From sequence record OL960577.1: a stretch of DNA of 64,000 nt; one strand, written 5' to 3'. The notes beneath the pieces are model-generated. The model was not told the origin of the DNA, did not search any database, and was given only the letters and a program-made list of their open reading frames with translations. The stretch is from Escherichia phage vB_EcoM_SA35RD. Below, one piece after another: positions 1 through 60,580 of this stretch. How positions within the stretch are numbered: position 1 is the stretch's first letter; the number at the start of each line of letters is the position of its first letter. A program made the translations under genes and the position numbers.

Positions 1-126
1 GCTTACAAGTTTCTTACGGTCTTTATCGGACAAATCATGAAATGAATGGGCCTTTTTATTTATAGCGGCTTCTAATTTACCTGCACTCACTCGAGCTTCA
101 GTAATAAATTCTTGATATGTTTTCAT
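1..126 (-). CDS. ipIII: internal protein, IPIII-like, N-terminal 42 codons only (3' end off-window)
   Basis: Minus-strand ATG at 126..124; translation MKTYQEFITEARVSAGKLEAAINKKAHSFHDLSDKDRKKLVS resembles T4 IPIII N-terminus as I recall it, with the capsid-targeting sequence MKTYQEFI.E. Confidence 0.6.
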   Translation of the reverse strand, partial: MKTYQEFITEARVSAGKLEAAINKKAHSFHDLSDKDRKKLVS

Positions 127-151
127 TTTGTTCCTATTGTTTTAATTTATG

Positions 152-466
152 TTATTCTTTAGGGAAGTTTTTAGAGTATGCATCATAAAGTTTATTACCA
201 ATACGGCGGAAGACTTTAGCTGCAAAACGGTTTTCAGGGTTTTTAATCATGATTTGCATCATGTAAGTTCCTGCATCCGAAAGAGCTTCTTCATAGTACC
301 CATTAATTTCTTTAAGAGTCCTACGTTTACCACCAGGACCATCAACAGTAATTTTCCATTTACCTGTAGAAGTGCGGCTCGGTGGCTCAACTTGTTCAAT
401 CCAAATATAACCACCTTCAACGCGTTGGTTGGCGGATTCTGCAATAAATTCTTTATACGTTTTCAT
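152..466 (-). CDS. internal-protein-like head protein (CTS-bearing), 104 aa
   Basis: ORF starts MKTYKEFIAE (IP capsid-targeting sequence, gp21-type cleavage after E10); SD AAGGAA upstream; early promoter at 497..526. Confidence 0.6.
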   Translation of the reverse strand: MKTYKEFIAESANQRVEGGYIWIEQVEPPSRTSTGKWKITVDGPGGKRRTLKEINGYYEEALSDAGTYMMQIMIKNPENRFAAKVFRRIGNKLYDAYSKNFPKE

Positions 467-496
467 TTTTGTTTCCTTGTTTGTTTTGATAGAGTA

Positions 497-526
497 ATTA
501 TACCATATTAATACTTAAGCGTAAAC
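497..526 (-). promoter_or_regulatory. early sigma70-type promoter (GTTTAC-18-TATAAT)
   Basis: Minus strand: -35 GTTTAC (521..526), -10 TATAAT (497..502). Confidence 0.55.
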
Positions 527-529
527 AAT

Positions 530-790
530 TTAAGCTTTACCGCCAGAAATAATTCCGAAGTTGTTAAAATCGTATCCAATATCGTCAACATCTACTTTAG
601 GACTTGCTGCAACATAAGCAATTTCACTACGTTTTGCATAGGTGTTGATTTCTTTACCATCGCCACCTAAGAAAGAATACCCATTACGTTTTAATGAGCC
701 AAAGTCTTCCGCATCACCAATGAAAGCTTTAACTTTAAATTTGGGGTCTTTGGCATCTGATTCAGCGATAAATTCTTGATACATTTTCAT
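530..790 (-). CDS. internal-protein-like head protein (CTS-bearing), 86 aa
   Basis: ORF starts MKMYQEFIAE; tightly packed between the previous IP gene and denV. Confidence 0.6.
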   Translation of the reverse strand: MKMYQEFIAESDAKDPKFKVKAFIGDAEDFGSLKRNGYSFLGGDGKEINTYAKRSEIAYVAASPKVDVDDIGYDFNNFGIISGGKA

Positions 791-796
791 TTTTCC

Positions 797-1222
797 TTAG
801 TAAATTGATTTACCATAGTATTTGTACCAAGTCGGACGTTGAGCAATTTTTTCATCTAAGCGTGCTTGACTTATCGCAATGGACGCTTCGGACGGGTCAT
901 AATTATTACGAAATTCGGCAGGGATGTCGGAAATATCCTGGACTGTCGTGTCCTTGATTTTGAAACCACGTTTCAAGCATTCAGCGATTAGCTCGATTTG
1001 ACGTAAACGTAAAAATTCGAGTTTGTCGTAAAAGAATGTTACGTGACCTGTGCCTAAGATAAATGTTGGAGAGATTTTAAAATCCTTTACACGTTTACCG
1101 TTTTGAACATGTTTACGGACTGCACCAAATACGCGTGGTAATTCACGATACTCAGCCATAAGATGTTGGTCGGACAGTTCAGAAACAAGTGTTAAATTGA
1201 TACGAGTCATAATTTCCTCCAA
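797..1222 (-). CDS. denV: endonuclease V, pyrimidine-dimer DNA glycosylase/AP lyase
   Basis: 141 aa; [12 protein letters not shown]...[16 protein letters not shown]...[22 protein letters not shown] is near-identical to T4 endonuclease V as recalled. Confidence 0.9.
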
Positions 1223-1237
1223 GTAGTTGATGAATGT

Positions 1238-1267
1238 ATAGTATCAAAACCCTTGGAGGAAGTAAAC
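1238..1267 (-). promoter_or_regulatory. early promoter cassette upstream of denV, inside a 9-bp inverted repeat
   Basis: -35 GTTTAC (1262..1267), 18 bp, -10 TACTAT (1238..1243); inverted-repeat arms 1215..1223 and 1252..1260. Confidence 0.5.
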
Positions 1268-1268
1268 A

Positions 1269-1550
1269 CTATTTTTCTGAAGCGCCTGAAATATATTTTT
1301 CAAGACGTTGTTTCATCAGCGAGCCGTTCTTAGCGATTTCTTCTGGTTTATCGCACATACGCAACAAGGCTTCAAGCTTAGCGATATCGCTGGTACGTTC
1401 AAATTTGCGAGTATCTATCTTACTAGCAAGTTCAGAAATACGTGCTAATAGACTTTCAGCTTCAACCAAAGCTGCACCTAGCTTAGTTGCAAATGTGTCA
1501 GTAGCTTCGTTAAGAATAGATTCTGATAAAAATTCACTATATGTTTTCAT
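1269..1550 (-). CDS. internal-protein-like (CTS-bearing), 93 aa
   Basis: Internal ATG at 1550 gives [10 protein letters not shown]; ATG overlaps the lysozyme stop (ATGA); the 1565 start adds a 5-aa extension not compatible with a CTS. Confidence 0.55.
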
Positions 1551-2035
1551 ATATACGCTTTCCAAGTTCCTGTTTTAAATGTTGAGATTACGCGTTTCGC
1601 GCGATTAGGTGTCTGACGATACCATTTAGATTGAGCTAGATTTACTGCCGCTTCATCCCAACGTTTCTGTTTAAGCATACGAAGAGAATTAGTAAAACCG
1701 GCGACTCCTGCTACACCCATTTGGAAGACCATATTGACCAATGCACACCGACGAACTGCATCTAAAGAATCATATACCGGTTTAAGTTTAGCATTACCCA
1801 AGATTCCGCGAACGGCTTTATCAACGTCTTCATTAAATAGCTTTTCAGCCTCATCAAGGGTAATTGTACCGTTGCATTTACGACCGATCATTCTGTCAAG
1901 TTCAGCTTTAGCTACGGCTAAAGACGGGTTCTTTGTTACCAAGTGGCCTATGCCAATCGTCCAAAAGCCTTCAGTGTCTTTGTATAAAGTCAGTCTAAGA
2001 CCTTCGTCATTACGAAGCATTTCAAATATATTCAT
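1547..2035 (-). CDS. e: lysozyme (endolysin), T4 gene e homolog
   Basis: [32 protein letters not shown]... aligns along full length with T4 lysozyme; ATG at 2035 with SD GGGAGG; the track's 2047 start is GTG. Confidence 0.95.
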
Positions 2036-2059
2036 AATACCTCCCACGTTTATAGGAGA

Positions 2060-2067
2060 TATTTATT
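2060..2067 (-). promoter_or_regulatory. possible variant late promoter (AATAAATA) at the gene e RBS hairpin
   Basis: Minus strand reads GTAATAAATATCTCCTATAAACGTGGGAGGTATTATG; one mismatch to TATAAATA; a transcript start here would fall inside the 5' arm of the SD-sequestering hairpin. Confidence 0.3.
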
Positions 2068-2069
2068 AC

Positions 2070-2528
2070 TTATAGGATAGTAGTGAGCACCTTATATAAT
2101 GATTTGCCCATCACATATTCCCATTGAGAAGGTTTAATTAAAGCGAACGCATCAAATTCAGGAATCTGTCGTCCGTCTGGGAATGTATGATAGGAATTAC
2201 AAGCACTGTTTCTGAATTGCTCGTGCTCTACAGGGATGGTATATAGGAACAGATGAATATTCTTATTGTCTGAGTAATGATGTTCACCTAGGTCTTTCAG
2301 GAAGGCAGGGTCATATTGTGTAAACCCAGTTTCTTCTTCGCATTCGCGAATAGCGGCTTCAATAGGAGATTCACCGGGCTCGACACGTCCTTTAGGAATA
2401 TCCCAGCGATGAGCTAAAGAACCTTTAGGACGAGAACCAGTTACACGCCCCATGAATAATTCTTTATCTTCGGTAAGGAAAATAATACCGGCTGATAGTT
2501 CTTTCACTTTATTTTTCTTACTCATCAT
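2070..2528 (-). CDS. nudE: Nudix hydrolase (NudE/e.1-like)
   Basis: 152 aa; Nudix box GRVEPGESPIEAAIRECEEETG; position immediately upstream of e as in T4. Confidence 0.85.
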   Translation of the reverse strand: MMSKKNKVKELSAGIIFLTEDKELFMGRVTGSRPKGSLAHRWDIPKGRVEPGESPIEAAIRECEEETGFTQYDPAFLKDLGEHHYSDNKNIHLFLYTIPVEHEQFRNSACNSYHTFPDGRQIPEFDAFALIKPSQWEYVMGKSLYKVLTTIL

Positions 2529-5830: not shown

Positions 5831-5860
5831 ACTATAACATAGCCCTATCTTGTTGTAAAC
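5831..5860 (-). promoter_or_regulatory. early promoter cassette (PeSL-like)
   Basis: -35 GTTTAC, 18 bp, -10 TATAGT; inverted repeat GATAGGGCT/AGTCCTATC around the -10. Confidence 0.5.
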
Positions 5861-9480: not shown

Positions 9481-9786
9481 TTATTTTTTCCAACTCAACA
9501 ACTTGTAATGTCCTTCATTCGTACGTGGTTTATCCCAAGAAATACTAATATATGATTCGCTGTCAATAGAAGTCGCCGGGTTTTTCTCTACCGTAAGACC
9601 TTCACTTTCCAGCCATTCAATAGTATTTGCGCATAAATCGGAAGAACACCTCATCGGGAACCGGCAAGATTTTTCACCTTTAGATGCTGCATCGTACATC
9701 TTTTCCAAAATACGCTTTTGCACGTTTTTAAAAATAGTTTCAGCAGATTCTTCAGATTTTTTATTCAGTTCAGTGTAAAGACTCAT
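9481..9786 (-). CDS. hypothetical small protein
   Basis: 101 aa; promoter at 9815..9843; several Cys residues. Confidence 0.55.
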   Translation of the reverse strand: MSLYTELNKKSEESAETIFKNVQKRILEKMYDAASKGEKSCRFPMRCSSDLCANTIEWLESEGLTVEKNPATSIDSESYISISWDKPRTNEGHYKLLSWKK

Positions 9787-9814
9787 AACATTTTCCTCTA
9801 TGGTTGATAAGTCT

Positions 9815-9843
9815 ATAGTATCATGTCCTTAGAAGAAGTAAAC
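9815..9843 (-). promoter_or_regulatory. early promoter cassette
   Basis: -35 GTTTAC, 17 bp, -10 TACTAT; downstream TAGACTTATCAAC core shared with 9444 and 45568. Confidence 0.5.
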
Positions 9844-9876
9844 ATCTTTATGAAATATTTTTATGCCCTAGATACC

Positions 9877-12736: not shown

Positions 12737-12753
12737 TTTGTTTTGATAGGACT

Positions 12754-12783
12754 ACTATAACATAGTCCTATCGTGTTGTAAAC
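12754..12783 (-). promoter_or_regulatory. early promoter cassette (PeSL-like)
   Basis: -35 GTTTAC, 18 bp, -10 TATAGT; inverted repeat GATAGGACT/AGTCCTATC (12745..12753 and 12764..12772). Confidence 0.5.
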
Positions 12784-29258: not shown

Positions 29259-30838
29259 GTAATAACAATACATACCAACACGTTTCAAACGAATCCATTT
29301 ACGTTGAATTCGACCCTACGGGGTCGAATTTTCCAGATACAGTCACTAATGTCCAAGCCGCATTAGCTGCTATTTCTCCTTCAGGTGTTAATGGTGTACC
29401 GGAAGCGACAACTACTACATCAGGAATTATTCAAATAGCTACTCCACAAGAAGTTATTGATGGATTAGATAATAGTAAAGCTGTTACTCCGGCATCACTG
29501 AATGCTCGTCTACAATATCCTAATGCAACTGAAACTCAATATGGCTTAACTCGTTATGCTACTGAAGATGAAGCAGTAACAGGAACTATTGACGATGCAT
29601 CAATTACTCCGCTTAAATTGAATCAAAAAATAGACAATGTATTTCAGACAAAAGTGTCAACAGAAGCAACAAATGGTGTAATTAAAATTTCAACTTCTGC
29701 TGCGGCATTAGCTGGCTCTGACGATACAACGGCAATGACCCCGTTAAAAACGCAACAATTAGCAATTAAACTTATTTCGCAAATTGCTCCAAATAATAGT
29801 GACGCCACCGAATCTATTACCGGTGTTGTTCGTTTGGCTACAGTTGCTCAAGCACAACAAGGCACCCTGCGTGAAGGCTATGCAATTTCACCTTATACCT
29901 TTATGAATTCAGTAGCATCAGAAACTAATAAAGGTGTCGTTAAACTAGGGACACAGACTGAAGTAAATAGTAACAACTCTTCAGCTGTAGTGACCGGCGC
30001 AACATTAAACGGACGTGGTGCTACAACTTCTTTACGTGGAGTTGTTCGTTTAACTACACAAGCGGGTAGTCAATCAGGTGGTGATGGTTCTTCTGCCCTT
30101 GCTTGGAATGCTGATGTTATCCACCAACGAGGTGGACAAACTATTAATGGCACGCTTCGCATTAATAATACGTTGACGGTTGGTTCTGGTGGTGCTAATA
30201 TAACGGGTAATGTCAATATGACCGGCGGTTATATTCAAGGCAATCGTATTGTGACTCAAAATGAATTAGACCGAATTCTTCCAGTTGGCGCTATTACAAT
30301 GTGGGCTGCAGATAGTTTACCGAGTTCTGATTGGCGCTTCTGTCACGGTGGGACCGTTTCTGCTTCAGAATGTCCGGTATATGCTTCCAGAATTGGGACA
30401 CGATATGGTGGTAGTTCTTCTAACCCAGGCTTGCCTGATATGCGTGGATTATTTGTTCGTGGCTCAGGTCGTGGCTCTCACTTAACAAATCCAAATGTTA
30501 ATGGTAATGACCAGTTTGGTAAGCCTAGATTAGGTGTAGGTTGTACTGGTGGATATGTTGGTGAAGTACAGAAACAACAGATGTCTTATCATAAACACGC
30601 TGGCGGATTTGGTGAGCATGATGATTCTGGAGCATTCGGTAATACCCGTAGATCAAATTTCGTTGGTACACGTAAAGGACTTGACTGGGATAACCGTTCA
30701 TACTTCACCAATGACGGATATGAAATCGACCCGGCATCACAACGAAATTCCAAATATACATTAAATCGTCCTGAATTAATTGGAAATGAAACACGTCCAT
30801 GGAACATTTCTTTAAACTATATCATTAAGGTAAAATAA
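29255..30838 (+). CDS. 12: short tail fibre gp12
   Basis: 527 aa as in T4 gp12; Ser/Thr/Gly-rich repeats. Confidence 0.9.
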
Positions 30839-45267: not shown

Positions 45268-45537
45268 TTATTTCTGTGCAATTTTGATGTAAGTTTTCAA
45301 AATATTTTGCCAATTAGGCATACCTTCTTGGACATACGCTGGAGAACCGTCTTTGTTTTTGAATGATGCAAGTTTATCAGTGGCCCAATAACCTTTAGCT
45401 CGAGCTTCAGAATCAACTTTCATCCATACTTTGTTGAAGGCATTACCATTAACTTTTGCACCATATTTTTCTACTAACTTAACTGCTTCAGCTTCTAGAA
45501 CTTTTAAAGTATCTCGTAAGAAACGTGCTTTAGTCAT
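45268..45537 (-). CDS. hypothetical small basic protein in the gene 23-24 intergenic slot
   Basis: 89 aa (MTKARFLRDTLK...); own early-promoter cassette at 45568..45597; opposite strand to the flanking late genes. Confidence 0.55.
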   Translation of the reverse strand: MTKARFLRDTLKVLEAEAVKLVEKYGAKVNGNAFNKVWMKVDSEARAKGYWATDKLASFKNKDGSPAYVQEGMPNWQNILKTYIKIAQK

Positions 45538-45567
45538 TTTGTTTACTCCTCTGTAGTTGATAAGTCT

Positions 45568-45597
45568 ATAGTATCACATACCAAATACGTTGTAAAC
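45568..45597 (-). promoter_or_regulatory. early promoter cassette within the late-gene block
   Basis: -35 GTTTAC (45592..45597), 18 bp, -10 TACTAT (45568..45573). Confidence 0.5.
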
Positions 45598-45603
45598 AAT
45601 CTT

Positions 45604-46922: not shown

Positions 46923-46929
46923 AACAAAA

Positions 46930-46952
46930 GGGACCTTACGGTCCCTTTTTTT
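46930..46952. terminator. bidirectional rho-independent terminator between gene 24 and rnlB
   Basis: GGGACC-TTAC-GGTCCC hairpin with TTTTTTT on plus and TTTTGTTTT on minus. Confidence 0.75.
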
Positions 46953-60546: not shown

Positions 60547-60552
60547 GAAAAA

Positions 60553-60580
60553 GGGAGACGTTGTCTCCCTTTAGGGGTTT
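60553..60580. terminator. bidirectional terminator after gene 54
   Basis: GGGAGAC-GTT-GTCTCCC hairpin; TTTAGGGGTTTATTT on plus and TTTTT on minus. Confidence 0.65.

Follow-up and report, generated by a model that had tools for sequence, protein, structure and literature searches.

Genes at the denV locus

The denV gene occupies positions 797..1210 on the minus strand of the analysed window, which is a stretch of 64,000 nucleotides from Escherichia phage vB_EcoM_SA35RD (OL960577.1). It starts with an ATG at 1210..1208, has its stop codon at 797, and encodes 137 amino acids. The product matches the Pfam family PF03013 (Pyr_excise, 4.8e-14) and is annotated as endonuclease V, a pyrimidine-dimer DNA glycosylase, in relatives. 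Immediately upstream in the direction of transcription is a gene for a 93 amino acid internal head protein (1269..1550, minus strand; PHROG 3499, 2e-46), which carries the N-terminal capsid-targeting motif MKTYSEF. Further upstream are the lysozyme gene e (1547..2035, minus strand; Pfam PF00959, Phage_lysozyme) and the Nudix gene e.1. Downstream of denV, a second internal head protein gene (530..790, minus strand; PHROG 2667) begins 6 nucleotides past the denV stop codon. This gene has no promoter of its own, and therefore its transcripts must cross denV.

The DNA of this locus is 98.6-100% identical to that of Escherichia phage APCEc01 (Mosigvirus, Tevenvirinae), whose record carries no annotation of regulatory features here. 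The gene order is e-IP-denV-IP, compared with e-ipIII-ipII-denV in T4. Small genes with starts at 1550, 790, 466, 126 and 13074 (all minus strand) encode products that begin with MKTY(x)EF, the motif for capsid targeting in T4 internal proteins, and denV is embedded in the internal-protein locus formed by window positions 1-1550. At 1547-1550 the TGA stop codon of e overlaps the ATG of the internal-protein gene as ATGA, which suggests translational coupling of these two late products.

In T4, denV is classed as early-RNA/early-protein, and ipII, ipIII and e are classed as early-RNA/late-protein (PMC9697503 supplements). The T4 middle promoter PipIII has been mapped inside e and points towards denV (PMC2988021). 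By analogy, the genes 5' of denV appear to be heavily transcribed at stages without DenV synthesis. A consensus scan predicted no terminator on the minus strand between the upstream gene and denV. Given this result and the nearby upstream stop codon, read-through into denV is plausible, and the 93 amino acid internal-protein gene is the likely carrier of such transcripts. No copy of the late box TATAAATA with at most one mismatch was found on the minus strand between 1210 and 2029. The same box occurs 19 times in the whole window (7.8 +/- 2.6 expected); most copies are on the plus strand at 37-59 kb, and this concentration marks a late-gene block.

An inverted repeat that spans a predicted early promoter and the ribosome-binding site

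The first-pass annotation of this DNA had described a pair of complementary 9-mers in front of denV, TCCTCCAAG at 1215-1223 and CTTGGAGGA at 1252-1260, and both the positions and the perfect complementarity are exact. The repeat is real, but its stem is one pair longer than the 9 bp that had been proposed (10 bp, 1214-1223 / 1252-1261). A repeat search extends it imperfectly to 19 nucleotides at 79% (1205-1223 / 1252-1270, with 28 nucleotides between the arms), and folding predicts four further inner pairs. The hairpin forms on the minus strand, which is the denV-coding strand. Read as mRNA, the intergenic region runs from AAAAAUAG through UGUUUAC, UUCCUCCAAG and GGUUUUGAUACUAUACAUUCAUCAACUA to CUUGGAGGAA, followed by AUU and the AUG start codon.

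The 5' arm UUCCUCCAAG (1252..1261, minus strand) is the anti-SD arm and corresponds to positions -30 to -21 of the promoter spacer. The 28-nucleotide loop (1224..1251, minus strand) holds the extended -10 element, the predicted transcription start and a conserved initial motif. The 3' arm CUUGGAGGAA (1214..1223, minus strand) contains the Shine-Dalgarno (SD) sequence GGAGG at 1220..1216, 5 nucleotides ahead of the AUG, in agreement with the earlier placement of the SD in the ATG-proximal arm. The TAG stop codon of the 93 amino acid internal-protein gene (1271..1269) is located some 7-8 nucleotides ahead of the 5' arm.

There are eight perfect 10-bp inverted repeats with loops of at most 40 nucleotides in the window, compared with 2.7 +/- 1.8 expected from Markov shuffles, and a perfect 10-bp repeat by itself is unremarkable in 64 kb. 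The only match to the covariance models of Rfam was a chance-level lncRNA hit (17.4 bits against a gathering score of 60, E 0.67). The element does not look like an intrinsic terminator, which has a G+C-rich stem and a short loop with a U run directly after it, since here the loop has 28 nucleotides and the stem is followed by AAAUUAUG; the terminator scan does not report one.

The putative denV promoter is of the T4 early type. Its -35 element GTTTAC (1262..1267, minus strand; TTTACT at 1266..1261 in the sigma-70 register) directly adjoins the hairpin's 5' arm. The A-rich sequence AAAAAT and the TAG stop codon of the upstream gene precede this element, and a 17-nucleotide spacer in the sigma-70 register follows it. 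The -10 element had been placed in the loop, and the predicted hexamer TACTAT is indeed found there at 1243..1238, with a TG at 1246..1245. Transcription is predicted to start at about 1231, and the conserved initial motif ATCAAC lies just after this position. A generic sigma-70 scan does not list this promoter because it scores 8/12 against a threshold of 9, and a T4-type pattern was therefore used instead. The pattern GTTTAC-N16-19-TAnnnT has 14 sites in the window, compared with 3.9 +/- 2.1 expected, and 12 of these are on the minus strand, which is the early-gene strand. The T4-type early consensus seen at denV is common to 10 other promoters in the window, and the same consensus has been published for T4 and RB69 (PMC1524935, PMC2988021).

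Since the 5' arm is promoter spacer and the -10 element is part of the loop, RNA initiated at this promoter would lack the 5' arm. Judged from the letters of the DNA, the promoter is placed so that its transcripts should bypass this arm. The GenBank and RefSeq records of T4 carry CDS features alone at denV, with neither a promoter nor a stem-loop annotated, and a literature search found no genome-wide dataset of T4 transcription start sites. The abstract of a 1986 study of the T4 denV region by Valerie reportedly mentions potential stem-loops before ipIII, ipII and denV.

Folding of read-through and promoter-initiated RNAs

The hairpin segment alone folds with -19.1 kcal/mol (z -5.94), and none of 200 shuffled sequences folds as well. 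All five SD nucleotides are paired in this hairpin. A 101-nucleotide read-through RNA folds with -23.4 kcal/mol (z -3.2) and also has the SD within the stem, and the hairpin is kept when folding is carried out in a 441-nucleotide context that includes the whole upstream gene. RNA initiated at the promoter (from 1232) folds with only -4.0 kcal/mol (z +1.9), a structure weaker than those of its shuffles.

The accessibility of the start site was expressed as an opening energy, which is the cost of making positions -15..+3 single-stranded. Sequestration of the SD in read-through RNA had been proposed earlier, and in the long RNA opening the SD and AUG is predicted to cost 11.4 kcal/mol. The companion proposal, that the SD is free in RNA from the promoter, also holds in the model, wherein opening costs 3.0 kcal/mol for a leader that lacks the upstream arm when counted from the predicted start. 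Thus, the folding of both transcript forms that had been suggested as a check gives an SD that is locked in the long RNA and free in the short one. For comparison, the classical hairpin at gene e of this phage has an opening energy of 14.3 kcal/mol by the same measure. The median over 84 gene starts in the window is 5.75 kcal/mol, and denV falls at about the 90th percentile without being an extreme outlier.

Ten genes in the window lie close behind an early promoter. Among them, denV has the largest difference between long and short RNA, at 8.5 kcal/mol, and seven have differences of only -0.4 to 2.3 kcal/mol. Because these seven similar promoters show no such effect, the difference at denV is not a by-product of the promoter consensus. 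The SD serves as the 3' arm in just three of the 10 early-promoter cassettes.

Conservation and covariation among denV loci

We gathered 80 denV loci, of which about 30 are T4-like and the others include loci from jumbo phages. Each of the approximately 30 T4-like loci carries a promoter of the GTTTAC type 55-60 nucleotides after the stop codon of the upstream gene, and all exhibit a long-minus-short opening difference, ranging from 6.8 to 20.8 kcal/mol. The jumbo-phage loci, which have a terminator-promoter arrangement, give differences of about 0-3 kcal/mol. The upstream stop codon itself is located 55-60 nucleotides ahead of the denV ATG in most lineages. The gene 5' of denV almost always encodes either an internal protein with the MKTYxEF motif or lysozyme e. 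T4 has the same layout in the same place with a different stem (GTTTACA-UCUCCUGUAG...CUACAGGAGA). Minimum-energy folding pairs the SD in each of the 22 distinct denV sequences.

There are two architectures among these elements. In this window, in T4, and in the groups represented by L009 and L030, the promoter spacer (-30..-13) provides the anti-SD arm. CHI14-like and TG1-like phages, among other lineages, instead have the arm over the -10 element and discriminator (-13..+3), and there it pairs with the stretch from the SD through the AUG. In both architectures the arm is essentially 5' of the transcription start.

When upstream halves were swapped among 16 lineages, opening the SD was predicted to cost 14.9 kcal/mol with the cognate half and 8.1 kcal/mol with non-cognate halves (permutation p = 5e-5). 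Compensatory changes are evident in the pairs on the loop side of the stem, wherein position 1 is A-U, U-A or G-C and position 2 is A-U, G-C or U-A. A MAFFT alignment of the upstream regions left the 3' arms misaligned and was of no use for counting pairs, and a covariance model was used for this reason. Built from the T4 group, the model retrieved the remaining spacer-type elements, which yielded an alignment of 17 sequences. Both sides have changed in seven of the 10 stem pairs of this alignment. Paired cells amount to 95.8%, compared with 73.5% in shuffles, although the alignment is structure-fitted and this inflates the paired percentage. The covariation score in the same structure-fitted alignment of 17 elements is 0.568, compared with 0.165 in shuffles (0/500 as high) and 0.07-0.14 in slid controls.

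One denV cassette, from a metagenomic T4-like phage (L017, 1444-1506), is nearly identical in sequence to the T4 ipIII promoter cassette (L001, 3941-4001) with the denV SD grafted onto it. Shuffling of cassettes of the published promoter-early stem-loop (PeSL) type within the internal-protein locus could account for this likeness.

Relationship to known regulatory systems

The closest precedents are the T4 genes e, soc, 49 and I-TevI, in which a late promoter lies inside a hairpin and early read-through RNA is silenced (PMC3014915). As in these genes, the denV SD and AUG are predicted to be locked in RNA that starts upstream, and an internal promoter is predicted to yield RNA without the upstream arm. 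The known members have a late gp55 promoter with the box TATAAATA and are late genes, whereas the denV promoter is of the early sigma-70 type and denV is an early gene. Another difference is that the anti-SD arm of denV is itself part of the promoter spacer, and silencing would affect middle and late read-through. A late promoter and a late gene are therefore features that denV does not share with the e class, but these features describe the known members and not the mechanism. The likeness to T4 lysozyme that had been drawn earlier is accordingly correct as to mechanism, namely an SD hairpin with an internal promoter, but the timing is reversed because the internal promoter is early. On this basis denV appears to join the e/soc/49/I-TevI class as a new member, one whose internal promoter is early instead of late. 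It is not among the cases known to the 2010 review, in which the word 'denV' does not occur (PMC3014915).

The classical e hairpin is conserved in the window at 2036-2074 (minus strand), with 12 bp, arms at 2063..2052 / 2047..2036, an ATG at 2035 and a z-score of -2.65. The late-promoter boxes of e deviate from TATAAATA, and read AATAAATA (2067..2060), TATAAGTA (2074..2067) and, in the loop, TATAAACG.

The element also corresponds closely to the PeSL cassettes published for T4-type phages (PMC2839356, PMC4122927). In these, an AT-rich region with a stop codon is followed by a sigma-70-like early promoter (TTTACW-N17-TAYWAT in the T4/PST group), an SD and an ATG, and a stem-loop either occupies the interval from -35 to -10 or covers the -10. 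Analogous elements at T-even internal-protein loci are attributed to Repoila 1994, as cited in these two papers. At denV the corresponding layout is AAAAATAG-TGTTTACT-N17-TACTAT...GGAGG-N5-ATG. Its TTTACT-N17-TACTAT fits the PeSL consensus, the spacer contains the 5' arm and the loop contains the -10. Also as in the hyperplastic regions in which PeSL elements occur, the cassette is flanked by internal head protein genes that vary between lineages. The published stem-loops are read as terminators or attenuators and recombination sites, whereas the denV stem lacks a U tract and has the SD as its 3' arm. A translational role is not discussed for PeSL in PMC2839356, in which the words 'translation' and 'ribosome' do not occur.

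The same design is found at T4 regB (L001 236-300, minus strand), where GTTTAC is followed in the spacer by UUUUCCUCUUGAC, which pairs with GUUAAGAGGAG at the SD through 12 pairs, including two G-U pairs. Unlike denV, regB is a different gene whose published control consists of an early promoter and self-cleavage of its SD by RegB, and the hairpin is not mentioned in the account of regB control in the 2010 review (PMC3014915). Finally, hairpins of the homing endonuclease genes mobE (Aeh1) and segB (T4) similarly sequester the RBS and leave read-through RNA untranslated (PMC3014915). These differ from denV in being genes of mobile elements with late internal promoters or none.

A proposed translational insulator and its alternatives

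Based on the anatomy of the sequence, the gap in folding energetics that separates the long RNA from the short one, and the conservation and covariation of the pairing, all of which were computed here, we consider it likely that the hairpin is a translational insulator built into the early promoter cassette of denV. The transcription start site, the occurrence in this phage of RNA that reads through into denV, and the effect on translation are the parts that we infer. Host RNA polymerase would start at about 1231 and produce an unstructured leader of 21 nucleotides that leaves the SD GGAGG and the AUG accessible, and for this reason DenV could be made right after infection. RNA that enters from upstream, either as early or middle read-through or as late mRNA from the lysozyme late promoters via e and the internal-protein gene, would carry the promoter spacer. 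In such RNA, UUCCUCCAAG would pair with CUUGGAGGAA, lock the SD (about -19 kcal/mol) and block access of the 30S subunit to denV, while polymerase would still pass on to the internal-protein gene 3' of denV. If only RNA from its own promoter is translated, then DenV synthesis would track the activity of the early promoter and not the amount of RNA that covers denV. Since transcripts must cross denV at this locus, a translational block that lets polymerase through fits better than a terminator. The core of this reading, an SD hidden in read-through RNA and free in RNA from the internal promoter, was advanced in the first-pass annotation and is supported by computation and comparison, and each of its computable steps holds at the level of sequence analysis. 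Several points count against it. The opening energy in the long RNA is only near the 90th percentile of gene starts, the covariation was scored on a structure-fitted alignment, and a stem-loop in an analogous RB49 cassette has terminator activity. The loop is large (28 nucleotides) and the hairpin must fold before ribosomes load during transcription. In addition, a ribosome terminating at the nearby upstream stop codon could melt the first one to three pairs and allow some coupled initiation.

A different reading of the same architecture is that the element is simply a PeSL cassette, whose stem-loop terminates or attenuates upstream transcription and acts as a recombination linker for internal-protein genes, such that its overlap with the SD is incidental. 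The published PeSL layout is indeed matched at denV (PMC2839356, PMC4122927). One RB49 PeSL stem-loop cut lacZ expression like a strong terminator, TransTerm predicts terminators upstream of denV in RB43 and 44RR, the resemblance of the L017 denV promoter to the T4 ipIII promoter accords with cassette shuffling, and palindromes at other early promoters in the window surround the -10 but stay clear of the SD. However, the denV stem is followed by AAAUUAUGACU without a U tract, the terminator scan is empty on this strand, and T4 and other lineages likewise lack a U tract or a predicted terminator. Moreover, the SD forms the 3' arm in all of the approximately 22 distinct denV sequences despite their different arm sequences and positions. 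Because this overlap is constant at denV, yet occurs in only a minority of the window's early-promoter cassettes, it does not appear incidental. Termination here would also be costly, since the internal-protein gene downstream lacks its own promoter. We therefore judge the terminator reading unlikely; the recombination role that it includes is compatible with a translational role and does not replace it. A smaller chance is given to translational coupling, in which denV would be switched on only when ribosomes finishing the upstream gene arrive at its stop codon and melt the 5' arm. DenV output from read-through RNA would then be proportional to upstream translation and not silenced. The stop codon at 1271..1269 lies 7 nucleotides from the 5' arm, within the footprint of a terminating ribosome, and its distance from the denV ATG is maintained at 55-60 nucleotides in most lineages. 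Nevertheless, a ribosome at this position covers at most one to three of the 10-14 pairs, and the arm that lies over the -10 in the second architecture, some 30 nucleotides further downstream and out of reach, is equally conserved. In addition, DenV is an early protein in T4 and the products of ipII, ipIII and e are late, which is the opposite of what coupling predicts.

The hairpin might instead be an element for RNA stability or processing that shields the 3' end of the upstream internal-protein mRNA against exonucleases or marks a processing site, with the SD in a secondary role. It is intergenic and lies right after a stop codon, and stem-loops can shield RNA, as when RegB is inhibited by secondary structure (PMC1702504). 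This would leave the constant location of the 3' arm at the SD or SD-AUG unexplained, a stem of 10-14 bp is too short for RNase III, and the RegB resistance of the T4 denV GGAG is due to its 3' sequence and not to structure. We accordingly find this option quite improbable. Least credible of all is a chance palindrome without function, even though 64 kb should contain about three perfect 10-bp inverted repeats with short loops by chance alone. This is effectively refuted by the comparative data, given the exact placement on the SD, a z-score of -5.9 and compensatory changes across genera. It is this placement and conservation, and not the repeat alone, that lead us to reject chance.

Protection from RegB was considered separately as the purpose of the hairpin and was rejected, since the T4 denV GGAG is RegB-resistant by virtue of its 3' context. 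The RegB study treated denV mRNA as unstructured and attributed its resistance to sequence (PMC1702504).

Other cassettes in the window

A cassette with the same design as that of denV is located at 9781-9845 (minus strand), where the -35 element GTTTAC (9843..9838) is followed by the spacer arm UUCUUCUA (9837..9830), which pairs with the SD region UAGAGGAA (9800..9793). The gene it precedes (ATG at 9786; PHROG 18312) encodes a protein of 101 amino acids of unknown function, and the opening difference is 6.6 kcal/mol. With the covariance model derived from denV, this cassette scores 47.5 bits, which is above the score of the denV element itself. A weaker example is found at 45532-45599 (minus strand), wherein GUAAAC (45546..45541), located after the SD and before the ATG at 45537, is the pairing partner of the -35 element GUUUAC (45597..45592). 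Its gene encodes 89 amino acids of unknown function (PHROG 6003), and the opening difference is 7.2 kcal/mol with a fold z-score of only -0.85.

Palindromes that flank the -10 without reaching the SD are present at 12745-12772 and at the promoters at 5860, 13138, 4565 and 60931 (minus strand). An example is the perfect 10-bp repeat GATAGGACTA/TAGTCCTATC around TATAGT, and these palindromes resemble the published PeSL stem-loops.

We suggest tentatively that a subset of T4-type PeSL cassettes may be translational insulators and not terminators, with an anti-SD arm placed in the promoter spacer or the -10 region, the gene translated solely from its own promoter, and polymerase at liberty to continue into downstream genes, although we hold the general case to be somewhat less likely than not to be correct. 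In that event denV would be the best-conserved example, and T4 regB and the genes with start codons at 9786 and 45537 would be further ones. PeSL stem-loops would then be reinterpreted, some promoter/stem-loop cassettes that have so far been seen as terminators or recombination linkers would acquire a testable function, and an 'early-only' counterpart to the 'late-only' control of lysozyme would be defined. The insulator proposed for denV itself, if real, would extend the textbook T4 control of lysozyme, soc, 49 and I-TevI to the opposite temporal direction. For the phage, an early repair gene could be tolerated amid late-transcribed head-protein and lysis genes without late over-production, and transcription would still reach the internal-protein gene downstream of denV. 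Protein output of denV and similar genes would not be predictable from RNA-seq coverage, and engineered T4-like phages with cargo behind such cassettes would inherit the insulation.

Three further perfect 10-bp repeats in the window, at 29307-29330, 46926-46949 and 60550-60572, have loops of 3-4 nucleotides and A/T flanks (for example AAAAGGGACC...GGTCCCTTTT). They probably serve as intrinsic terminators in both directions.
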